From positions 6,075 to 70,074 of the forward strand of contig NZ_JBIKRX010000001.1 in the NCBI RefSeq assembly GCF_044348915.1: a DNA stretch of 64,000 nucleotides. Direction: 5' to 3'. The position numbers and the translations under genes are program-made. The stretch is from Flavobacterium sp. GTDB lineage: Bacteria; Bacteroidota; Bacteroidia; Flavobacteriales; Flavobacteriaceae. Of the stretch, positions 8,649 to 42,349 are shown one piece after another. The notes under the pieces were generated by a model. The model did no database searches and was not told the origin of the DNA. It was given only the letters and a program-made list of their open reading frames with translations. How positions within the stretch are numbered: the stretch's first letter is position 1; each line of letters begins with the position of its first letter.

Positions 8649-8713
8649 CCCCTTCGATAAGCTTTGGGTGACACTATTTGAACATTAAATTATGCAATAA
8701 AGTTACAAAAAAT

Positions 8714-9322
8714 TTATAGAATTCGTTGATTAATTACTGCTCGAACTACATCTATGGCGACGGTGTTGTACTTGTCGTTTGGGATGATGATGTCGGCAAA
8801 GGCTTTGGTGTTTTCTATAAATTGTTGATGCATTGGTTTTAGGGTGGTTTGGTAGCGATTGAGTACTTCCTCCATATCGCGGCCGCGTTCGGCGATGTCG
8901 CGCTTCAATCTTCGGATTAAGCGCTCGTCAGAATCGGCGTGGACGAAGATTTTGATGTCAAACAAATCGCGAAGTTCTGGATTCGAAAGAATTAGTATGC
9001 CTTCGACAATCATTACTTTCCTAGGATGTGTGACAATGGTGTCGTCGGTACGGTTGTGTATGGCAAAGGAATAAACGGGCTGATTGATGGTTTTTCCTGC
9101 TTTTAGATCCTTGAGATGTGCTACCAATAGATCGAAATCAATGGCTCTAGGGTGATCAAAGTTGGTTTTAGACCGCTCTTCGTAGCTTTCTACTGTGGAA
9201 GCTTTGTAATAGGAATCTTGGGCAATTATTCCTACTTCGGTATGGGGTAATTCATTCATTATTTGATGAACTACGGTTGTTTTTCCGGAGCCTGTACCTC
9301 CTGCAATTCCTATGATGAGCAT
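8714..9322 (-). CDS. udk: Uridine kinase
   Basis: GIAGGTGSGKTT, QDSYY, NFDHP, MIVEGIL, ERLIRRLKRD. Confidence 0.95.
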   Translation of the reverse strand: MLIIGIAGGTGSGKTTVVHQIMNELPHTEVGIIAQDSYYKASTVESYEERSKTNFDHPRAIDFDLLVAHLKDLKAGKTINQPVYSFAIHNRTDDTIVTHPRKVMIVEGILILSNPELRDLFDIKIFVHADSDERLIRRLKRDIAERGRDMEEVLNRYQTTLKPMHQQFIENTKAFADIIIPNDKYNTVAIDVVRAVINQRIL

Positions 9323-9366
9323 ATGTTATGGTATTATTATTTGAACAAAAATAAGGAATTATTGAT

Positions 9367-10599
9367 TTAGATTGATGAATTATTCTTCAGATCCTTGACT
9401 AAACTACTGGTGAAATACAAAATGGCAAGCCCACCCAAACTGATGCACAACCACATAAACCAGGATTGCTGCCAGAACGATTGATTTTTTGTTTGATTTT
9501 CTATGGAAGAAATGTGCTTTATATCATAAATTTTAGCTTCGGGGAGGGTGCTGTCGAGGCTTTTTTTGAAATTTTCTAGATCGTAAGCTGGGCTTTGTAA
9601 TTTTGGGTTTTGGGTCGTGATGGTATATTTTTCATTGGCTTTCAAATCGGCAATTACCGCAATTTGATTTTGAAAAAATTGTATTTTGTTAAAAGTCAAA
9701 GGCGGATTGTCTTGATTTTCTATTTCGATGAACCGTTCTTTTTCAAAAAATTGTGGAATGGCAATGCTGTTTTTTTGGCTGGAATTCAATTCGAAAGCGA
9801 ATAGCATTTCTCGGTACGTTGTAGGTTTTCGTTTTATTTGCTCTTTTTTATTGATGTAAATGGTTGCATTGCGTTTGTATAAATTCGGACTTTCGATCTT
9901 GAAGTTTATTTGATTAACAATTTGTGGGCGATTGAAGGTTATACTAATTCTGGTTTTTTTTTCGGCTGGAATTTGCTCCAATTTGATTTTGTCAGGGGTA
10001 ATTTCGTCCTTTGTTGCAGCATTGGTTTTAAAGGAGATATAGCCAATTTTCAAGACATTAATGGGTAGAGTTTTCTTGTCATTAAAATCAATTTTTAGGT
10101 AACGATAGGAGCTAAGCGGAAAGCGAATTGGTTTTAATACACTTGTAGCATTGTTGTTTTCGAGTCCATTTAAAAGTGAATTATTGATTAAACCAAACCA
10201 TTCTTTTTGGTCGTTGCTGCCGCTGATGCTGTAGGTTTTCGTAACATCGGCATTAGTGACGGAAAGCACTATTTCATCTATAGTCGCTTTTGGGTTTTCG
10301 AAAATCAGGGTTGTTTTGTTCTTGGGAATAACTGTTTTCGAAATTATTTTGCATTCTACAAAGCTGTTTGAAACAGCTTGGGTATTGCCCTGCGAGATAT
10401 AATAGGGTACTTCGATACCTATGGCATCCAATATCCTGAAATCACCTAATTCTTCTTTGGAAAAAGATCGAATTTCTGTCGGTAGTACTATTTTGTGTAA
10501 GCCATTTTCCTTTACGGTTTCGATTTTTGCCGTGGTTTTGTGTTGTGCCAATAAAAGGTTTGACACAAACAGAAAGAATATAAATTTAATCAGTTTCAT
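9367..10599 (-). CDS. Exported protein with C-terminal TM anchor (DUF3999-like)
   Basis: Signal peptide, DFRILD...EVPY, C-terminal TM helix; overlaps the DUF2339-like gene. Confidence 0.65.
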   Translation of the reverse strand: MKLIKFIFFLFVSNLLLAQHKTTAKIETVKENGLHKIVLPTEIRSFSKEELGDFRILDAIGIEVPYYISQGNTQAVSNSFVECKIISKTVIPKNKTTLIFENPKATIDEIVLSVTNADVTKTYSISGSNDQKEWFGLINNSLLNGLENNNATSVLKPIRFPLSSYRYLKIDFNDKKTLPINVLKIGYISFKTNAATKDEITPDKIKLEQIPAEKKTRISITFNRPQIVNQINFKIESPNLYKRNATIYINKKEQIKRKPTTYREMLFAFELNSSQKNSIAIPQFFEKERFIEIENQDNPPLTFNKIQFFQNQIAVIADLKANEKYTITTQNPKLQSPAYDLENFKKSLDSTLPEAKIYDIKHISSIENQTKNQSFWQQSWFMWLCISLGGLAILYFTSSLVKDLKNNSSI

Positions 10600-22297: not shown

Positions 22298-22374
22298 ATA
22301 TGTAAACAATAAGCATAAAAAAAATGGTTTAGAATTTCTAAACCATTTTTTTTTTTTTTGAAATAATTTATTTC

Positions 22375-22417
22375 GTAGCGAGACCGTGATTTGAACTCGG
22401 GACCTAAGGGTTATGAA
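22375..22417 (-). repeat. Degenerate att core (tRNA-Met 3' half), distal end of the older island
   Basis: gtagcgagaccgTgatttgaactcgggacctAagggttatgaa: 41/43 match to 42275..42317. Confidence 0.9.
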
Positions 22418-22442
22418 AGCACTCTTTTAGTTTTTACCAAAA

Positions 22443-22685
22443 TTAGTCGACTTTTTTCTGAGGATTTATAACTTCTGCTTTTTGGTATTTTTTATAATAA
22501 TAAAACAGTAGAATAATACCTATTATAAACATAGGAACAATCCAATCGTCAATTGGAGCAGGTGCTCCCGGATCATCCTCTCCCGGAAATCCTGGGTCTC
22601 CACCGACATCTGCCTTAGCAACAAAACTGAATAAATTAAAAACTACTAAATAAATCTTTGACTTCATTGGGCTTATGGTTTTCAT
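22443..22685 (-). CDS. Small secreted peptide with PID-CTERM-like sorting signal
   Basis: Signal peptide, Pro/Gly/Asp-rich DVGGDPGFPGEDDPGAPA, then PIDD-TM helix-basic tail (YKKYQK). Confidence 0.75.
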   Translation of the reverse strand: MKTISPMKSKIYLVVFNLFSFVAKADVGGDPGFPGEDDPGAPAPIDDWIVPMFIIGIILLFYYYKKYQKAEVINPQKKVD

Positions 22686-22699
22686 TAGTATTATTACTG

Positions 22700-25600
22700 T
22701 TACTTAATAATTAATTTTCTTGTAAACGTTTTTCCTTCTTGCTTAACTTGTATTATATAAATCCCTATTTGTAATGAAGTAACATTTACACTATTACTTA
22801 ATTGCATCAATTTACCTTCTTGTACTTGTTGACCCAATAAATTGGTAAGTGTGTAACTAGCCGATGTTGTATTCTCTTTTAACAACACTGTAAACACTCC
22901 CGCATCCACGGGATTAGGATACACTCCAACAGACAAAATATCTTTGTCATTTGTACTCAATGCAGATTGGTAAATGATTCTAAAGCGACTATCTGGATTC
23001 GTACTATTTGCTACTACTCCTGTAAACGGAAGCACTACTTCTGAACCATCGGTCGGGATAGGCGTTACCGTTCCCGTTTGTGTGTCTTGGATAAAGGGTT
23101 GTAAATTAGTATTGGTATAACTTTCAGCTTTTACTTTTAAAAGATAAGGCTGAACCGTTGTTCCTGTCAAACGCATCGATTGTGCTGTGCTCGCAGTGGG
23201 TAGTCCTCTGTATTCAATGGCTAAATTAGAGGTGCCATTGCTAAACATTAGATTTTCATCAAAGTTTGACATTTTACCTGTATCCGTATGATCAACCTCA
23301 TTGTTTCCAGATGAACTATTTACAGCTAAAATTCCATCGGCCAATTGCCACTCTGAATTGTTTTGTTTGTACAATAAAACCCGTATTTTATCTGCTGGGC
23401 TATTCGCAATTCTTGAAAACCAACTGTTACTACTGCCTGAAATTTTATGTGATTCCGCAATAGAAAAAGTGCTGTTGCTGGCTGTGCGCACAAAAAATGC
23501 CTGACCACTTTGTATGTTTTTATCGGTAGCCGAGGGGGTTGTGGGTGCCCAATTCGTTCCGTCATACGTAAAGTATCCGCCAACTTTTCCTAAAGATGGA
23601 TCTACCATCCATACTTTAGAGCCTGAATTGGCTAGTACCATAGCTTCAGTATTTAAAGCACTGGCATAGGGATTGGCTACTAAATTGTATTGATTTCCTA
23701 TGATGCTGTTTGATACCGCTCCAGTAATTAATTGCCCTTGCGGTTTTAAAGTAGTTGCTGCTTCACCCAAGGCAACGTTAGTGCTGTTGAAATGCCCTGT
23801 GGCAAAAACTAAGAAACCATTAGTGCCAGTTGAGGTAAATAAATTTTCATTTGTTAGATTGGGAATGGCTTGCCATCCGTTATTGTATTTCCAAATGTTA
23901 GGCATTCCACCGCCCAAAGTATAACCCGTCATGGTTTGACTTTGATAGGTAGCTGGGCTAAACAATAACAATCCTTCTCCATTAACGCCTTGCCAATTTG
24001 CAGGAACAGTAGTGTTTGTAGCGCCTTTCAATGGAGCATTCAATAATCGCCATGCCCGTTTGGCAGGAATGTAACGTTCTATAGTAGCCAATCCGCTTAC
24101 ACGGTTAAATGTACCGCCTAAAGAACCAAAAGCTGCAGTTCCTGTGGCATCCGATTTAAAAATTAGATTTCCGTCATGGGTAAAGTTACCACCAGAGGTA
24201 ATGGTCTTGCCAGCGGCTATGGTGGTGTTTCCTTTGAGATGCATTATAGTGCTCGATCCAGTGGTGGTTAAATTCGAATTGATTGCCACATTATTTCCAT
24301 ATAATTCAATTCCTGCGCCACCAATTACATCAGCATTTACCGTGATATTTTTATCGTTAGTTACATTACCAATGGTAAGTCCGGTACAAGTAGCCGTTAA
24401 ATTCGCAATTGGATAGATAACATCCGCTGAAAAAGTGGTTCCTCTTGGAATGTATTTAAAAGCACCTGAAGCCGTTAATGTTCTTGCTGAGCTTAAACCT
24501 CCAAGTGGATTGTCAGTGTATAAAGAAATGTCTCCGTTATTAGTCGTCGTCAAATTGGCATTTAATGTAATTGTGCCTCCATAAATATTAATAGGACCGG
24601 CAATGGACTGGGCTGAAGAAACCGTAATGTTCGCTGTATTGCTTGCCTTACCCAAGGTCAATCCGTTTATCGTGTTGGCAATGCTTAAATTGGTAATGGG
24701 GTAAGTAAGAGCACTGGCAAAACTGTTACTTGATGGCTCAATCGTGACGGTTCCGCTGGTATTGACCGCTATGCCACCTGCTGCAAGCGCAATATTGTCT
24801 GCAGTAAGGACCACATTGCTACTGGAACTTAAAATACTTCCACCTTGCCCAATGTTTATTTTGGAAGGGCCTGAAGTTTGGCCACCTAAATTTATTGCTG
24901 TTGCCACCTGCACCGCTTTCGTATTTCCATTTAAAGTGATATTCCCTGAATTAGCAAATACATTGATGATGCCGTGATAAAAATTTCCGGCTACGATGCT
25001 TCTGCCTGTGCCCAAGGCATTACCGTTCATGACAATATTCCCGCCTCCGGAAGCTGTGATATTCAAAGTACCACTAAGGCCAATCGCGTCTTCAGTTCCT
25101 CTTCCTACACCAGTAATCGTAATCGCATCACCTGAAGTTGAAGAGGATGAGATATTCACTGTTGAGGCAATTGCATTATCATGCAAACCAAATAAAATTC
25201 CTCCACGATTTCCTGCGGCAGTACTAGTTACCTGACCGTCCATTTCAATTTTGCCACTTCCGGAATTAATATTAATGGTATTTCCATAAGAAACAATACC
25301 TCTAGCTGAAGCAGCACCATCCCCTGCAATTTTTATATTCCCGCCAAAAGAGGTTATTGAATTTCGTTCTAAATAGATACCTGCGGCTATGTCAGTACCG
25401 GTGTTAGAAGGGGTAAATAACGTTCCCGGAACAGCATAGCCGTTACCGACACTTAACCCATTCCATGTTGTTCCGTTGCTACCACCTCCAATCCAAACGT
25501 GTCCACCTGCTACAGTATTGCTGCCGGTAACAATAGATGAACCGTTTCTTAGGGCAATACTTCCATTCGCAGTTCCATTATCACTATTTGCCCAAAGGAT

Positions 25601-27166
25601 AGCAGAACCTCCGCTCGTTGTGATGCTTTTACTAGCAGCTAAAACAATATCGCCTGTACCTTTGAGTAAAACATTTCCAGAGGAAGCGCCTGCTGATGTA
25701 TTTAAATTTTCATTAATGTTGATATTACCTCCATATATGGTGATCGGCCCCGCAGGAGATAAGACATTCGCAAAGGTCAGATCGGTGGTATTGGTACTCT
25801 TACCTAACGTGAAACTAGAAAGTGTAGTTCCAAAATTCCAGTCGTTGTCATAAGTAAGTGTACCACCTGCGTCATCGGCGCGCATGTATGTAAATGCGTT
25901 GCCTGTTGGCTGAATGGTTAGGGTGCCTGTAGTTTGAACAGCTATAGAACCTGTGCTTGAATGTAAATATCGTTGATAAATGGAATTCCCTTCAATTAGA
26001 ATATTACCCGTGTACGAATTTGTCCCATCGAAACCAACTCTAATTGAATTTGATTCATTTCTCGGATCAAAACGAATAGAATTGCAATATTGTCCTGAGG
26101 ATTCAAGTGAATTGGTTCCCCTAATTGTTATATTTCCAGAACGTGATATAATTTCCGTAGCTCCTCCAATTGCTAACCCTTCTTTATCATTAACAGTTGC
26201 CGCAAAATATGCATTTCCTTCTATTTGTATATTTCCCGAAGTCGTAGAAATTATTGTTTTTGCAGTCGATGACGAACCAGTAATAACTGCTCCAAATCGA
26301 AAACCATTATCGTTTGGGGAATTATCAGACCCTGTTCCCCTAATACTTATAGATCCCGTTGTAGTGGTAATCGATGTTGCTGTTGTTGTTGTTGATTCTA
26401 TACGGGTGCCATTACCAATTGAATATCTACCATCTAATTCTCCATTAATTTCAATATTGCCACTTACACTTGAAATATCTGAGTTTACCATACGAACGCC
26501 ATAATTCTCTCCGCTGTTTGCAGAAGAATTAAAAGAAAGGCCGGCTAAATAAACATTCCCGCCATTTGTGTTTAATGTGGAGTTTTCAATCCATAATCCG
26601 GGTGTATTGTCTGTCCAGGTTCTTGCTACATCATTACCTACAGTCAAACCATTCCAGGTAACATTTCCAGAGCCGCCCCCGATCCATAGATGACCGCCGT
26701 TAGTATTGATTGTGTTATTCTGTCTTATGGAGATACGACCATTATTTGGTATGCCACCCGAACTAGCAGCTCTTAAAACCACATTCAAGGCACCGCTACC
26801 GGTGGCTGTTATTGACTGATTGAGTGATGTTAAAAAAATGTCATTGGCAATTAAAAAAGTTAATGTTCTTGTTGCCGACCCTGTGTAAGTTATAGTTCCA
26901 TCGATAGAGCATTGTCTTATTTGATTACTTTGCCCAGGTAGAACCACTGTAAGGTTACCCACATTGTTTAAGTGATTTGAGATTACGTTTGGATGCACAT
27001 CGGCTGTTCCTGAGGATGCTACATTTAAAGTGTTCCCCGTGATACTCCAGTTTGTACCAGAGGTTCCTGTTTGCCCTGTACTTATAATATTAAGATTTTG
27101 AGATTGTAGGGAATAAATCCCTAAGAAAAATAATAAAATAGGGTAGCTGGTAAGAAGTTTTTTCAT
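22700..27166 (-). CDS. Large T9SS-secreted beta-helical adhesin-like protein (probable start MKKLLTS)
   Basis: Signal peptide; G/T/N/S-rich repeats; C-terminal VYPNP...TNLLGQQV...IYIIQV...TRKLIIK type A CTD. Confidence 0.85.
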   Translation of the reverse strand: MKKLLTSYPILLFFLGIYSLQSQNLNIISTGQTGTSGTNWSITGNTLNVASSGTADVHPNVISNHLNNVGNLTVVLPGQSNQIRQCSIDGTITYTGSATRTLTFLIANDIFLTSLNQSITATGSGALNVVLRAASSGGIPNNGRISIRQNNTINTNGGHLWIGGGSGNVTWNGLTVGNDVARTWTDNTPGLWIENSTLNTNGGNVYLAGLSFNSSANSGENYGVRMVNSDISSVSGNIEINGELDGRYSIGNGTRIESTTTTATSITTTTGSISIRGTGSDNSPNDNGFRFGAVITGSSSTAKTIISTTSGNIQIEGNAYFAATVNDKEGLAIGGATEIISRSGNITIRGTNSLESSGQYCNSIRFDPRNESNSIRVGFDGTNSYTGNILIEGNSIYQRYLHSSTGSIAVQTTGTLTIQPTGNAFTYMRADDAGGTLTYDNDWNFGTTLSSFTLGKSTNTTDLTFANVLSPAGPITIYGGNININENLNTSAGASSGNVLLKGTGDIVLAASKSITTSGGSAILWANSDNGTANGSIALRNGSSIVTGSNTVAGGHVWIGGGSNGTTWNGLSVGNGYAVPGTLFTPSNTGTDIAAGIYLERNSITSFGGNIKIAGDGAASARGIVSYGNTININSGSGKIEMDGQVTSTAAGNRGGILFGLHDNAIASTVNISSSSTSGDAITITGVGRGTEDAIGLSGTLNITASGGGNIVMNGNALGTGRSIVAGNFYHGIINVFANSGNITLNGNTKAVQVATAINLGGQTSGPSKINIGQGGSILSSSSNVVLTADNIALAAGGIAVNTSGTVTIEPSSNSFASALTYPITNLSIANTINGLTLGKASNTANITVSSAQSIAGPINIYGGTITLNANLTTTNNGDISLYTDNPLGGLSSARTLTASGAFKYIPRGTTFSADVIYPIANLTATCTGLTIGNVTNDKNITVNADVIGGAGIELYGNNVAINSNLTTTGSSTIMHLKGNTTIAAGKTITSGGNFTHDGNLIFKSDATGTAAFGSLGGTFNRVSGLATIERYIPAKRAWRLLNAPLKGATNTTVPANWQGVNGEGLLLFSPATYQSQTMTGYTLGGGMPNIWKYNNGWQAIPNLTNENLFTSTGTNGFLVFATGHFNSTNVALGEAATTLKPQGQLITGAVSNSIIGNQYNLVANPYASALNTEAMVLANSGSKVWMVDPSLGKVGGYFTYDGTNWAPTTPSATDKNIQSGQAFFVRTASNSTFSIAESHKISGSSNSWFSRIANSPADKIRVLLYKQNNSEWQLADGILAVNSSSGNNEVDHTDTGKMSNFDENLMFSNGTSNLAIEYRGLPTASTAQSMRLTGTTVQPYLLKVKAESYTNTNLQPFIQDTQTGTVTPIPTDGSEVVLPFTGVVANSTNPDSRFRIIYQSALSTNDKDILSVGVYPNPVDAGVFTVLLKENTTSASYTLTNLLGQQVQEGKLMQLSNSVNVTSLQIGIYIIQVKQEGKTFTRKLIIK

Positions 27167-27220
27167 GTTTGTGTAATTTTTGCGCAAAAAAACTAATTGA
27201 AAAAAAAAAAACACCTAATA

Positions 27221-27266
27221 GTACCTCACGAAATATACTATGCCATAAAAAATGTACCTCACAAAA
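27221..27266. promoter_or_regulatory. Candidate operator: direct repeat GTACCTCAC(G/A)AAA, 33-bp period
   Basis: Copies at 27221 and 27254 upstream of the T9SS gene; followed towards the gene by an A12 run (27200-27211). Confidence 0.45.
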
Positions 27267-27301
27267 AACTCCTTAAGCAATATTATCTAATTGATTATCA
27301 A

Positions 27302-29194
27302 TTATAAATTCAGGATAAACTGCTGCAAATTAGCTTCGGTATTTAATTGTAACTTCTTGCGAATGATACTTCTGCTGTTTTCAATAGTTCGAACCGTTCT
27401 GTTGGTTAAATAAGCAATTTCTTTAGAGGTATAATTCAATCGCAACATGGCACAAATAATCAATTCATTTGGAGTCAAATCTGTAGAAATAAGTTTGAGT
27501 TTTTCGTAAAACGATTCATAAACCCCCATAAAACGATTCTCAAAATCCACTAAAAACGCATCGGGTCCAGAGGATTTTAATTTGCTTTTTAAACCATTAA
27601 ATTTAGTTTTATATTCTAAAGGCAAATCTTTTATAATAGTTTCTAAATCTGATTTAATTAATGATTTAGATTGCTGGATAGATATATTTTTTAGTGATAT
27701 TGTTACTAATTCTTTTGATTTCATCTCTAGTTCAGAGGCCGTTTTTTGATTCTTTAATTTCAACCTTTCTTGTTTTTTTAAGCTTTTATTTTGAAGGATA
27801 AAATAAACAACAAATAAAGCCATAACTAGTATAATAATACTAAAAACATAAATGTAATTATATGTGGTTTGTTTTCGTACTAGTAATTGTCGCTGTGCAT
27901 TAAGTTGTATGCTTCGCTCACGTTCTCGCGATAATTCCCATTCTGTTATTACACTTCTGGGTAAGTCGCCAGTAAAAGTTTCTTTATTTTTTATGTAGCT
28001 TCTATAATAAGCATTAGCAAGATTTGTATTCCCCAAAGCATCATAAATACGATAGGATGGTTCGTAATATCCTTTATTAAGCACTACCATATCAAAACGC
28101 TTTACCTCGTTTTCAATCAACTTAAGCGTACTCGCTGCTTCATTGTATTTTTTCTGATCATAATATACTTCGGCTCTGTTGATTTTATTAGCCAGAATAC
28201 CGAAATTAATTCCCATTTCATTACATAGAGAATCTGATAATCGAATAAAATGAAGCGCTTCGGAGTAATTTCCCTCTCTTCGTTTTAAATTGCCATAATT
28301 AGCATAACTCTGCGCAAGCAAAGCTGGTATTTTTTTTTCCTTTGCAATGCGTATAATGGTTTGATAGGTTTTTTCAGCCTCTTTGTAAGATTTCGTTTTG
28401 GTTTGAATAACTCCTAACGAATTATACAAATAGGTAGGATATTTATCGAAACTTAAAATCACTAACGAAGAATCAATATAGGTTTTAGCTTTATCCAAAC
28501 AATCCATATCCAAGTACATAGTGGCTAAATTATGATACAACGTAACTAATTTTAATTTTTCTGATGATTCTGTCAAATCAATTGCTTTATGATAGTGTAC
28601 CGCTGCTTGGAAAAAATTCCCTTGAAGATTTTCTAAATTCCCTTTATTCACGTGATAAACCAATCGTAAGGTCTTAGTGCTGTCTATTTTAACGTAATTA
28701 TGTAGCAAATCAACATATTTTTTTAAACTATCACTTTCTTTTCGATCACTAAAATATTTAGCCAAATTAACAATAGCATAAACTCGGGGCTTTTTATATA
28801 CTTTTCCTTCAGGGGTATTCAAAGTAAAACGTGCAAGTTTTTCAGCTACTTTCGCATAATCTTTATGAAAAGCAGCTACGTTTAATTCTTGTAAAAGTGT
28901 TTCTGTTAAGCCAACTTTGTCGTGTTTTTTAGCTTGAATCTTTGCTAACAACCAGGCCTCAACATCTATTGTATTTTTGTAGGGTCTCTCGATAACATGC
29001 AACAAAAAGTTCCATTGCTCGCTAGGTTTTATTTGAAGGTATTCAAGTTGAACCTCTTTTGTGACAAAATCCTGCTCTTTTACTTCGGTATGAACTTCAG
29101 ACTTCTGCTTATTGCAACTAAAGAATAGGAATGATGAAATAGAAGAGAAGATTAAAAAACAATAAAGAATGTGCTTTGGTTTCAAGTTTTTCAT
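27302..29194 (-). CDS. TPR - TM - LuxR-type HTH regulator
   Basis: N-terminal LFFSC lipobox-like segment, TPR helices (YNSLGVIQ, SYANYGNL), TM YIYVFSIIILVMALFVVYF, LTPNELIICAMLRLNYTSKEIA...RTIENSRSIIRKKL. Confidence 0.85.
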   Translation of the reverse strand: MKNLKPKHILYCFLIFSSISSFLFFSCNKQKSEVHTEVKEQDFVTKEVQLEYLQIKPSEQWNFLLHVIERPYKNTIDVEAWLLAKIQAKKHDKVGLTETLLQELNVAAFHKDYAKVAEKLARFTLNTPEGKVYKKPRVYAIVNLAKYFSDRKESDSLKKYVDLLHNYVKIDSTKTLRLVYHVNKGNLENLQGNFFQAAVHYHKAIDLTESSEKLKLVTLYHNLATMYLDMDCLDKAKTYIDSSLVILSFDKYPTYLYNSLGVIQTKTKSYKEAEKTYQTIIRIAKEKKIPALLAQSYANYGNLKRREGNYSEALHFIRLSDSLCNEMGINFGILANKINRAEVYYDQKKYNEAASTLKLIENEVKRFDMVVLNKGYYEPSYRIYDALGNTNLANAYYRSYIKNKETFTGDLPRSVITEWELSRERERSIQLNAQRQLLVRKQTTYNYIYVFSIIILVMALFVVYFILQNKSLKKQERLKLKNQKTASELEMKSKELVTISLKNISIQQSKSLIKSDLETIIKDLPLEYKTKFNGLKSKLKSSGPDAFLVDFENRFMGVYESFYEKLKLISTDLTPNELIICAMLRLNYTSKEIAYLTNRTVRTIENSRSIIRKKLQLNTEANLQQFILNL

Positions 29195-29513
29195 AGAATT
29201 AAAACTATTTGATTTGTAATATTGATTTCGTATTAAAGTTAATTGCGAGGGACTTTAATTCTAAAATATTGGTAAATGTTAAATAAAGTTAACTTTTTAA
29301 AAAAAAATTCCAAAGTTAATAAAGAATACAATACGTGAATATTATGATATCAAATATGTAGTTAAAATAATTCATCTGGTTTAAATCCTTGTAATAATAC
29401 GACTTTGTAATCGTTTTGGTTAGTTTTCCTTACACCATTCATCAAAAATAAGAGTGACTTTTAATAAAAAAAAAGCCCTTAAACAATTGATGTTTAAGGG
29501 TTTTGTTGTTGTT

Positions 29514-29558
29514 GTAGCGAGACCGAGATTTGAACTCGGGACCTCAGGGTTATGAATC
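29514..29558 (-). repeat. att core (45 bp) identical to the tRNA-Met 3' half
   Basis: Perfect match to 42275..42319. Confidence 0.95.
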
Positions 29559-29637: not shown

Positions 29638-29660
29638 TCCTCACGCAGTTTCCTCACGCA
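29638..29660. repeat. Arm-type repeat TCCTCACGCAGTTTCCTCACGCA, left end
   Basis: Identical to 42171..42193; about 80 bp inside the att core. Confidence 0.85.
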
Positions 29661-42193: not shown

Positions 42194-42275
42194 GAAGAAT
42201 GGAGGTAGTGTTTTATTAGTCATTAAAATCCATTAAAAAACCCCTAACACTTTGGTGTTAGGGGTTTTACTTTAG

Positions 42276-42349
42276 TAGCGAGACCGAGATTTGAACTCGG
42301 GACCTCAGGGTTATGAATCCTGCGCTCTAACCGACTGAGCTATCTCGCC
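42276..42349 (-). tRNA. tRNA with CAT anticodon (Met; Ile2 not excluded), CCA not encoded
   Basis: ggcgagatagctcagtcggttagagcgcaggattcataaccctgaggtcccgagttcaaatctcggtctcgcta. Confidence 0.93.

Follow-up and report, generated by a model that had tools for sequence, protein, structure and literature searches.

C-terminal sorting signals of the PEP-CTERM (exosortase A) and PGF-CTERM (archaeosortase A) types are tripartite, with a short motif, a transmembrane (TM) helix and a basic cluster, and are read by a polytopic membrane enzyme resembling a cysteine protease. Haft et al. are said to have found this motif–TM–basic tail arrangement typical of exosortase and archaeosortase signals (2006 and 2012), and very small, low-complexity PEP-CTERM substrates were reportedly noted in the 2006 work. 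PID-CTERM, exosortase X (XrtX) and its partner are curated in databases (NF046080, NF046081 and NF046082), and no paper on them was found in the literature that we searched. The Flavobacteriia have the exosortase F system, consisting of XrtF (TIGR04128) and an associated membrane protein (TIGR04127). We know of no XrtF-family enzyme for which substrate cleavage has been demonstrated. In F. johnsoniae, deletions of xrtF and Fjoh_1449 phenocopy mutants of the T9SS attachment complex (porU/porZ) in biofilm, zorbs and sand colonisation, and the substrates of XrtF are described as unknown (PMC10936215).

We analysed a 64,000-nt stretch of a Flavobacterium sp. genome (the window; positions are those of the window unless a contig is given). 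It contains a mini-protein gene beside genes for a type IX secretion system (T9SS) cargo and a regulator, which an earlier note on this DNA had read as a peptide-sensing module. RRNPP receptors of Firmicutes (Rap, NprR, PlcR and PrgX) are cytoplasmic and sense re-imported peptides, with an HTH that is typically N-terminal in those members that bear one. The locus resembles these systems in combining TPR and HTH regions with a nearby gene for a small exported peptide. It differs in that the TPR region is predicted to be exported, with a TM helix between it and a C-terminal HTH, and in that the small protein is predicted to be membrane-anchored; nor is the pairing conserved.

Three co-oriented genes on an island remnant

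The three co-oriented genes previously claimed were all found on the minus strand: the regulator (P0003, 27302–29194), the T9SS cargo (22700–27166) and the mini-protein (P0001, 22443–22685). They are flanked by two minus-strand copies of the tRNA-Met 3′ end. The upstream copy (29514–29554) is att-like and exact over 41 nt, and the downstream copy (22375–22415) is degenerate, with 2 mismatches in 41; the actual tRNA-Met gene lies at 42275–42349. The 7.1-kb segment between these edges (22375–29554), which has no integrase gene, is what remains of an island at tRNA-Met and carries two separable functional units; the two copies support the earlier view that the trio makes up a whole older island. 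A tRNA-Met remnant also lies within ∼40 nt of the end of the mini-protein gene in loci L033, L034 and L039–L041.

The cargo has the length given earlier, 1488 residues, when counted from the ATG at 27166 (MKKLL...); a longer ORF starting with GTG (22700–27214) encodes 1504 residues. A signal peptide and a repetitive N-terminal region are followed by an uncharacterised pre-CTD module of ∼420 residues (22925–24217) and a type A CTD (22703–22924). In the 1504-aa ORF, residues 1431–1504 match Pfam Por_Secre_tail (E = 5e-12) and TIGR04183 (E = 4e-13). The N-terminal ∼1000 residues are rich in Gly, Asn and Thr, and PATR is present in orthologs. The cargo would be a giant surface protein exported by the T9SS, probably beta-helical, and its N-terminal region can be read as a beta-helix adhesin.

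The mini-protein ORF starts 14 nt past the cargo stop codon. No terminator-like site was found between the regulator, cargo and mini-protein genes; one lies downstream of them, a bidirectional hairpin with a T-run (22317–22353), which would end the cargo/mini-protein transcript. The cargo and mini-protein genes are probably co-transcribed.

The mini-protein is a divergent relative of PID-CTERM

The 80-residue mini-protein runs from a signal peptide, MKTISPMKSKIYLVVFNLFSFVAKA (22611–22685), through an 18-residue acidic Pro/Gly linker, DVGGDPGFPGEDDPGAPA (22557–22610), the PID motif (22548–22556) and D, to a TM helix, WIVPMFIIGIILLFYYY (22494–22544), and a basic tail, KKYQKAEVINPQKKVD (22446–22493). 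This agrees with the earlier description of a precursor whose mature part, of ∼18 residues, precedes a PID–TM–basic tail. The same order of signal peptide, short Pro/Gly/acidic linker, P-I-D, TM helix and basic tail, within a total of ∼60–90 residues, is found in PID-CTERM. Unlike the canonical members, which score 38–43 bits with NF046080, P0001 gave no match to that model at any E-value up to 10, and none to Pfam; two paralogs in this genome, on contigs C51 and C1, reach 18.5–20 and 12–13 bits, respectively. The motif context also differs, being APIDDW(I/V)VPM in the P0001 type and APIDGGLxLLAAAGG in canonical PID-CTERM, and the cytoplasmic tail of P0001 is longer. The PID-CTERM label of the earlier note therefore stands as regards the layout and membership in our own profile, and not as regards NF046080. 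Judged by that profile and by motif architecture, on which its family membership is based, the mini-protein is a divergent, Flavobacterium-type member of a phylum-wide PID-CTERM mini-protein family.

Close orthologs (51–100% identity) have the signal peptide–linker–PIDDW–TM–basic layout in common, and P-I is invariant in an alignment of 24 members. The TM helix and tail are better conserved than the linker in the close orthologs, which is also compatible with a stable membrane partner instead of a cleaved tag. The product is predicted to remain membrane-anchored unless it is cleaved by an exosortase.

Mini-protein genes frequently follow T9SS cargo genes

Four of the five mini-proteins in this genome sit 2–47 nt behind T9SS cargos, and orthologs lie 4–14 nt behind giants with PATR and Por_Secre_tail. 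Among the 2408 ORFs of this genome that encode 150 residues or more, our own profile finds a type A CTD tail in only 39. When the best mini-protein copy was taken from each of 59 genomes, 42 copies had a co-oriented ORF no more than 150 nt ahead of them, which matched Pfam Por_Secre_tail in 40 of the 42 cases. Such a gene directly precedes the best copy in 40/59 genomes, against a background of ∼2% of ORFs as estimated from this genome.

The ∼420-aa pre-CTD module is the sole region common to the four linked cargos here, whose CTDs are of type A or type C, and it occurs in 13 of 45 linked cargos of other lineages (best in G119, E = 5e-70). Five of the nine module-bearing cargos in this genome have no mini-protein, and some Flavobacterium mini-protein genes adjoin prfC or ribE with no cargo alongside. 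Therefore, the link to cargos is frequent but not obligatory.

The mini-protein family co-occurs with XrtF/XrtX-type exosortases

Across 301 Bacteroidota genomes, the family was found in 74 of the 101 that encode an XrtF/XrtX-like exosortase and in 3 of the other 200 (Fisher, 3e-43), these counts being uncorrected for phylogeny and dominated by lineages f1 and f43. The three exosortase-negative genomes all had marginal E-values. For PorV-positive genomes scored with TIGR04128, the corresponding figures were 74/98 and 3/138, and within the Flavobacteriales mini-proteins occurred in 19/22 XrtF-positive and 0/4 XrtF-negative genomes (p = 0.002). No mini-protein was detected in 24–27 of the exosortase-positive genomes. 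The mini-protein gene abuts an exosortase gene in four genomes (G163, G211, G139, twice, and G119), and three of these adjacencies are cargo–mini-protein–exosortase triads, in that order.

In this genome, XrtF (228 bits) and its partner TIGR04127 (165 bits) are both encoded at C3:7978–8959, as opposed to XrtX and NF046082 in the PID-CTERM system; XrtX was not found here (112 bits against a cut-off of 170). Flavobacterium xrtF is not adjacent to a mini-protein gene, and exosortase F is linked to the mini-protein by co-occurrence and by the sister systems (XrtX, XrtY-like), not by adjacency in this genome. Placement behind T9SS proteins and near-restriction to genomes with XrtF/XrtX-type exosortases, both shared with PID-CTERM, make the mini-protein a candidate XrtF substrate. 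In contrast to PEP-CTERM and PGF-CTERM, the motif is PID and the mini-protein substrates are almost all 'cargo-less'; their genes keep company with those of T9SS cargos and not with EPS loci.

The regulator and its conserved intergenic region

Domain matches and orthologs indicate that P0003 (630 aa) is a transmembrane one-component regulator. A lipoprotein-type signal (29114–29194), with a lipobox Cys27 after a hydrophobic N-terminus, precedes a TPR region matching TPR_12 (E = 1e-14) and a TM helix (27794–27856; residues 447–467) followed by a K/R-rich stretch. Behind a cytoplasmic linker lies a LuxR/sigma70-r4-like HTH (27344–27478) that scores below family thresholds (GerE gave a weak match, E = 0.029, under the cut-off). 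The topology is as previously described, with an exported TPR region and a cytoplasmic C-terminal HTH. A periplasmic sensor, one TM helix, a cytoplasmic DNA-binding domain and no phosphorelay are shared with ToxR/CadC and with the Flavobacterium beta-propeller (Y_Y_Y)–TM–LuxR proteins. P0003 departs from ToxR/CadC-type regulators in its sensor, a TPR array preceded by a lipoprotein signal, and in its HTH, which is LuxR-like, not winged-helix. The TM–linker–HTH module (residues 466–629) matches ORFs of mostly 920–990 residues in 30+ congeners, which are putative Y_Y_Y proteins.

P0003 has no paralog in its genome, and its orthologs were found at 36–84% identity. At 8 metagenomic/genomic and 16 GTDB loci with a regulator homolog (28–84% identical), the gene that follows is almost invariably co-oriented and encodes a giant secreted protein homologous to the N-terminal region of this cargo. 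As this order holds across genera, the regulator probably controls the adhesin gene. Conserved synteny in these 8 + 16 loci suggests that it acts on the promoter of this adhesin family, and the previously claimed regulator–adhesin link is likely.

The regulator–cargo intergenic region (27167–27301) has a mean column identity of 84% across five orthologous intergenic regions and may act as a putative promoter/operator. It contains a palindrome, TAATTGATAATCAATTA (27288–27304), two GTGAGGTAC direct repeats (27254–27262 and 27221–27229) and a TAGTTTTTTTG box (27185–27195) that resembles the Bacteroidota −7 element.

Discussion

The locus is best read as a cassette of an adhesin and an exosortase-tagged mini-protein, plus a separate adhesin regulator, on an island remnant; we give this a probability of roughly 0.6. 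The earlier note held that a free ∼18-residue peptide from the mini-protein binds the periplasmic TPR region of the adjacent regulator, in a one-component circuit controlling adhesin expression. We consider this very improbable; most likely, the regulator does not sense the mini-protein as a signal. The trio is the entire gene content of the island, predicted export places the TPR domain in the same compartment as the N-terminal part of the peptide, and at least one other contig, L054, keeps the full trio, with identities of 78% for the regulator, 83% for the C-terminus of the cargo and 67% for the mini-protein. A trio-like order also occurs in a Chitinophagales MAG (L135), and in L057 and three Psychroflexus loci the regulator is preceded, at a distance of a few hundred bp, by a mini-protein gene; about three complete trios are available in all. 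However, just one of the five mini-proteins of this genome, the island copy, is accompanied by the regulator; the other three that are cargo-linked have none nearby. A P0003 homolog was present at 0/20 mini-protein loci of relatives, and the 2.2 kb upstream of an orthologous cargo–mini-protein pair in L033 (mini-protein 78% identical) contain no regulator. Conversely, of nine regulator loci in which the adhesin is covered in full, six lack a mini-protein (L137, L139, L143, L144, L058 and L129; among complete loci, L129 has the regulator ortholog nearest to P0003, at 83% identity). The phylogenetic partner of the family is the exosortase, and, exosortase aside, no route that would free a peptide is evident. 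With the mini-protein pairing with cargos, its family tracking exosortases and regulator loci often lacking it, the proposed ligand role is unsupported, and nothing points to the mini-protein as the ligand of the regulator.

The mini-protein could instead be a stable single-pass inner-membrane partner, not an exosortase substrate, that uses its short acidic head in the periplasm and its conserved TM helix to tether, chaperone or pilot the cargo via the pre-CTD module before T9SS export. An anchor or chaperone role of this sort, already named as an alternative in the earlier note, fits the tight coupling to cargo genes, and we regard it as possible, if on the unlikely side. The association with the module holds regardless of CTD type, the L058 giant lacks both module and mini-protein, and P0009 and P0010 have nearly identical TM helices and tails despite different N-terminal halves; the PID-CTERM model also misses P0001. 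Left unexplained are the near-absence of the family from T9SS-positive genomes without an XrtF/XrtX-type exosortase (3/138) and the abutment of mini-protein and exosortase genes, and the motif–TM–basic tail is the standard architecture of exosortase/archaeosortase signals. A third reading, that the mini-protein serves the envelope in general and independently of the cargo, its gene being placed there by common regulation or by hitch-hiking with mobile adhesin cassettes, appears improbable. Paralogs at housekeeping sites in Flavobacterium genomes (beside prfC, or with ribE on one side and mce-like genes on the other) and the module cargos without a mini-protein favour it, but it sits poorly with the Por_Secre_tail genes directly preceding most best copies, with the short intergenic gaps and with the triads.

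Family membership, cargo linkage, and exosortase co-occurrence and adjacency are direct observations, from which we infer four steps for the exosortase-tagged mini-protein. It would be exported by Sec and cut by signal peptidase after AKA, and its C-terminal helix would anchor it in the inner membrane, leaving the basic tail on the cytoplasmic side. XrtF, the only exosortase of the genome, and its partner would then recognise and cleave it at or near PID, passing a ∼20-residue acidic Pro/Gly peptide to an acceptor. The product would cooperate with the cargo encoded next to it, its most plausible part being to help attach cargos with the pre-CTD module to the surface or to help mature them. As the second unit, the regulator, with its periplasmic TPR sensor and cytoplasmic LuxR-like HTH, would act on the adhesin promoter. 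The mini-protein is thus a candidate, put forward on sequence grounds, for the sought substrate of exosortase XrtF.

The three genes and their island

The three genes are co-oriented on the minus strand, with reading frames exactly where the earlier note had placed them. The regulator P0003 (27302–29194, minus strand, 630 aa) carries a lipoprotein-type signal, TPR repeats, a TM helix and a putative C-terminal HTH. It is followed by the giant T9SS cargo P0002 (minus strand, ATG at 27166, 1488 aa) and by the mini-protein P0001 (22443–22685, minus strand, 80 aa, an ORF read from the sequence), which starts 14 nt beyond the stop of the cargo gene. No terminator-like hairpin was seen between the three genes; one lies downstream of the mini-protein gene, at 22317–22353. 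At 29514–29554 the 3′ end of tRNA-Met is repeated exactly over 41 nt, and at 22375–22415 with two mismatches; the real tRNA-Met gene is at 42275–42349. Because these copies flank them on both sides, the three genes make up the whole of the older island, as had been proposed.

Remnants of the tRNA-Met 3′ end were also seen in orthologous metagenome contigs (L033:8951–8991, L034:1960–2000 and L039:6043–6083). In the window and in these contigs, one of them without the regulator, the remnant lies within ∼40 nt of the end of the mini-protein gene. It appears that the cassette of cargo and mini-protein moves as a tRNA-Met island.

P0002 begins with a signal peptide (MKKLLTSYPILLFFLGIYSLQSQ) and ends in a type A sorting domain (CTD, residues 1431–1504, ∼75 aa), which scores 49 bits on TIGR04183 (cut-off 23; E = 4e-13) and 46.3 bits on PF18962 (cut-off 27; E = 5e-12). 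With PorV encoded in the genome, these features identify P0002 as a T9SS type A cargo.

The mini-protein and PID-CTERM

In P0001, the signal peptide ends at AKA and gives way to an acidic Pro/Gly stretch of 18 residues (DVGGDPGFPGEDDPGAPA); PID-D, a hydrophobic helix of 17 residues and a basic tail complete the protein. Read from the sequence, this is the PID-CTERM architecture (signal peptide, P-I-D, TM helix and, at the very C-terminus, a basic cluster). P44 and I45 are invariant throughout A1, an alignment of 24 mini-proteins that includes canonical PID-CTERM members. The A1 profile recovers P0001 (95 bits) and its four paralogs, and also canonical APIDGG mini-proteins of other classes with E-values down to 1e-13, which is homology at the profile level. 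P0001 was ruled out as a spurious ORF: the gene is kept across classes of the phylum and is, because of this conservation in Bacteroidota, a real gene.

The curated cut-off of the NCBIfam PID-CTERM model, NF046080, is 26 bits. Neither P0001 nor its 32-aa tail matched this model at E-values up to 10, and no family in the Pfam and NCBIfam libraries matched P0001. The paralogs in the same genome score 12–20 bits on NF046080, below the cut-off, and canonical members of other lineages 38–43 bits. The Flavobacterium-type mini-proteins (APIDDW, APIN and GLPID) are missed by the NCBIfam model. Our literature search on PID-CTERM found no paper.

Linkage of the mini-protein to T9SS cargos

Searching the 3.14-Mb assembly with the A1 profile gave five mini-protein copies. 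Four of them lie 2–47 nt downstream of large, co-oriented T9SS cargos (contigs C106, which holds the window, C42, C75 and C1), and the fifth (C51, PPPPPGLPIDD) lies between ribE-like and mce-like genes. Our own profile of the type A CTD finds such a tail in no more than 39 of the 2408 ORFs of ≥150 aa in this genome, so that four cargo-linked copies out of five is far above chance. In close orthologs (mini-proteins 61–78% identical) the mini-protein gene always starts 4–14 nt after a giant PATR+Por_Secre_tail gene. Across the phylum, where the best-scoring copy was taken from each of 59 genomes, 42 had a co-oriented ORF ≤150 nt ahead of that copy, and 40 of these 42 ORFs matched Pfam Por_Secre_tail.

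Neither the N-terminal part nor the CTD type is constant among the four linked cargos of this genome: those of C106 and C1 have a type A CTD, those of C42 and C75 a ChiA-like type C CTD. Common to all four is a region of ∼420 aa directly ahead of the CTD, for which there is no Pfam or NCBIfam model. This pre-CTD module, defined here, is an unannotated mark of the cargos concerned. It occurs without a mini-protein in five further cargos of the same genome, and its HMM finds it in 13 of the 45 mini-protein-linked cargos of the phylum sample. The AlphaFold2 model of the module plus CTD, from a 12-row alignment, is weak (mean pLDDT 57), with confidence limited to beta-sandwiches at residues ∼275–505.

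Some Flavobacterium mini-proteins have no cargo link and occupy two conserved housekeeping positions: an acidic ...DDDPPPAPIN... type beside prfC (loci L013–L015, L021, L030 and L070) and a PPPPPGLPID type near ribE/mce (C51:20961–21182 in this genome, L027 and L032). The paralogous cargo at C75:20345–25802, outside the window, is broken into two ORFs 35 nt apart: one of 395 aa, with a signal peptide, and one of 1411 aa, whose start reads as a subtilisin-like (S8) region. This cargo is probably a protease-adhesin disrupted by a frameshift or reduced to a pseudogene, although its mini-protein gene is intact. In Psychroflexus maritimus, two near-identical 50-aa ORFs (MLKRLKNLTWIDVVLYLL...) lie at L060:5421–5573 and 9729–9881, one immediately behind the mini-protein gene, the other just upstream of the regulator gene.

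Co-occurrence with exosortases

Among 301 Bacteroidota genomes of ≥90% completeness, the T9SS marker PorV was found in 236 and an XrtF/XrtX-like exosortase in 101, all of them PorV-positive. The mini-protein profile matched 77 genomes; absences are soft, because no more than 19 candidates per genome were scored at the first filtering step. Exosortase-positive genomes had the mini-protein in 74 of 101 cases, as against 3 of 200 exosortase-negative genomes, where all E-values were marginal (>2e-4); the counts (Fisher p = 3e-43) ignore phylogeny, and two lineages dominate them. Set against the 236 genomes with PorV, this distribution indicates that the mini-protein family follows the exosortase and not merely T9SS.

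Gene adjacency is independent support for this association. An XrtX(-like) operon that includes the XrtX-associated protein opens with the mini-protein gene in genomes G163 and G211, and in G139 (two loci) and G119 there are triads of T9SS cargo, mini-protein and exosortase, in that order. The triad mini-proteins are bona fide PID-CTERM proteins, and the triad cargos carry the same pre-CTD module (E = 5e-70 in G119, with matches in both G139 cargos). The triad exosortase is XrtY-like, at 134 and 115 bits on NF046083 (cut-off 160), and no partner-protein gene was evident in the triads, which are compact (L063:734–4393, L064:3802–7519 and L065:3391–7557).

At 228 bits, the single exosortase of the Flavobacterium genome is a genuine XrtF (112 bits on the exosortase X model NF046081, cut-off 170), and the TIGR04127 partner protein adjoins it (C3:7978–8959). 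Neither the cognate exosortase X nor the XrtX-associated protein (NF046082) was found in this genome. In contrast, the canonical PID-CTERM lineage f43, which has many APIDGG mini-proteins, encodes an XrtX above cut-off, and its mini-proteins score 43 bits on NF046080. The PID-CTERM label that P0001 had been given thus stands for architecture and profile homology, but not for the NF046080 cut-off or for the cognate XrtX and NF046082.

With NF046081 and NF046083 tested alongside, true XrtF was found only in Flavobacteriales. Within this order (n = 26), the mini-protein was present in 19 of 22 XrtF-positive and in none of four XrtF-negative genomes (p = 0.002, phylogeny ignored). The genome encodes XrtF and the mini-proteins follow XrtF, which is the distribution expected of an XrtF substrate. 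This distribution, together with the sister systems, suggests that the Flavobacterium-type mini-proteins are candidate XrtF substrates. In a 2024 study of F. johnsoniae, xrtF was essential for biofilm formation and surface colonisation, deletions of xrtF and Fjoh_1449 gave the same phenotype pattern as deletions of porU and porZ, and the substrates of XrtF were explicitly stated to be unknown (PMC10936215).

The regulator and its adhesin

Cys27 of the P0003 lipoprotein-type signal is conserved in the regulator-family alignment A4, and the one TM helix (residues 447–467) is followed by a K/R-rich stretch. Since the TPR region lies between the lipoprotein signal and the TM helix, it is predicted to be exported; an exported TPR region with a cytoplasmic HTH, as described in the earlier note, is the natural reading. 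The TPR repeats score above family cut-off (TPR_12, 54.8 bits, E = 1e-14; TPR_1, 42.3 bits), and the family profile matched solved TPR proteins in the PDB (E = 2e-9), the HTH part staying below significance on the whole-protein E-value. The HTH of P0003 scores weakly on GerE (PF00196, 14.4 bits, cut-off 23.5). Of 23 family members, six match GerE (best E = 7e-4) and eight Sigma70_r4_2. There are weak, concordant matches to the HTH domains of VraR, ComA and EL222 (E 0.06–0.3), and also to the C-terminal ends of two LuxR-type regulators, MctR and TtrR. We found no P0003 paralog in the genome and no close ortholog among 36 congeners; orthologs in metagenomes and GTDB genomes are 34–84% identical. 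No paper was found joining Flavobacterium, a LuxR/tetratricopeptide regulator and T9SS.

At nearly all of ∼24 regulator loci, a large secreted-protein gene lies 3′ of the regulator on the same strand, after a gap of roughly 90–300 bp (∼600 bp in L135). In the loci tested, this gene encodes a homolog of the P0002 N-terminal region (51% in Psychroflexus, 50% in L058 and 31% in Flagellimonas). The regulator–cargo spacer is also conserved (84% mean column identity). Conserved pairing and conserved spacer together make it likely that the regulator controls the adhesin; the regulator itself is best read as a unit of its own, tied to the family of the adhesin's N-terminal part. This conserved regulator–adhesin pair is defined here.

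In the spacer (27185–27304), a palindrome, TAATTGATAATCAATTA, overlaps the stop codon of the regulator, and two GTGAGGTAC direct repeats, GTGAGGT(A/G), lie 33 nt apart; there is also what we take to be a −7-like box. The adjacent TV-Pol island has TGCGTGAGGA ‘arm-site’ repeats (29638–29660) that contain the same GTGAGG core, which may be coincidence. Beside cassettes of cargo and mini-protein in several genera we saw an AraC-family (HTH_18) regulator of ∼380–410 aa (L036–L038, L058:3235–4431, L060:5704–6846 and L134:5674–6849), possibly a second type of adhesin regulator, independent of the first.

Nine adhesins downstream of regulators were fully covered. The mini-protein is present behind three of them (the window, L054 and L135) and absent behind six (L129, whose regulator is 83% identical, L137, L139, L143, L144 and L058). 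The adhesin of L058 also lacks the pre-CTD module, which fits a link between module and mini-protein. Locus L033 has an orthologous cargo and a mini-protein (78% identical) and no regulator, and complete trios number about two or three. The mini-protein is dispensable for the regulator–adhesin pairing.

The adhesin of L129, the locus with the closest regulator ortholog, is followed not by a mini-protein but (8700–10050) by a short ORF in two copies, each ending ...IDTEFTYFSTSVDP(V/T)P(V/P)NPG(E/G)NSLGFNPLKFFK, which flank a signal-peptidase-like ORF. By sequence, these short ORFs look like RiPP-type precursor peptides.

Interpretation of the locus

We read the locus as the remnant of a tRNA-Met island that carries a cassette of adhesin and exosortase-tagged mini-protein and, independent of it, a regulator of the adhesin (probability about 0.6). 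The earlier note had suggested the processed peptide as a possible ligand of the TPR domain. Receptor and peptide genes show no conserved pairing here: the mini-protein pairs with T9SS cargos, and regulator and mini-protein each occur without the other. RRNPP systems, by contrast, pair the receptor gene with the peptide gene, and their TPR domains are cytoplasmic and bind a re-imported mature peptide, whereas that of P0003 is predicted to be exported. With the mini-protein missing at six of nine regulator loci and the regulator missing at L033, the ligand proposal has no comparative support, and we regard such a circuit, even at this one locus, as very improbable. The attractive idea of a Gram-negative ‘RRNPP-like’ peptide sensor is removed as unsupported.

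The other role that had been offered for the mini-protein, as anchor or chaperone of the cargo, points in the direction supported by the linkage of the two. The main rival to an exosortase-tagged cassette shares this linkage: the mini-protein would partner the cargo with no exosortase processing. The co-occurrence counts and the triads bear on that processing step, and we consider the rival unlikely.

For the exosortase-tagged cassette, we hold a tentative mechanism to be possible, if somewhat doubtful. The APIDDW, APIN and GLPID mini-proteins would be XrtF substrates, and the XrtF pathway would turn each into a short acidic Pro/Gly peptide, either anchored or conjugated. Adhesins with the pre-CTD module would then require this peptide for surface attachment or maturation. 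No counterpart of the Porphyromonas A-LPS anchor is known in the bacteria concerned.

These results bear on the targets of XrtF and on how type IX-secreted adhesins stay on the Bacteroidota surface. The candidates are tiny genes directly behind adhesin genes, with a distribution that follows the exosortase, and the locus and its four paralogs make them concrete and genetically tractable in an XrtF-only genus. If the mechanism is true, two sortase-like systems, XrtF at the inner membrane and PorU at the outer membrane, would be coupled, which would explain why the F. johnsoniae xrtF and Fjoh_1449 mutants share the porU/porZ pattern in biofilm and zorb formation.
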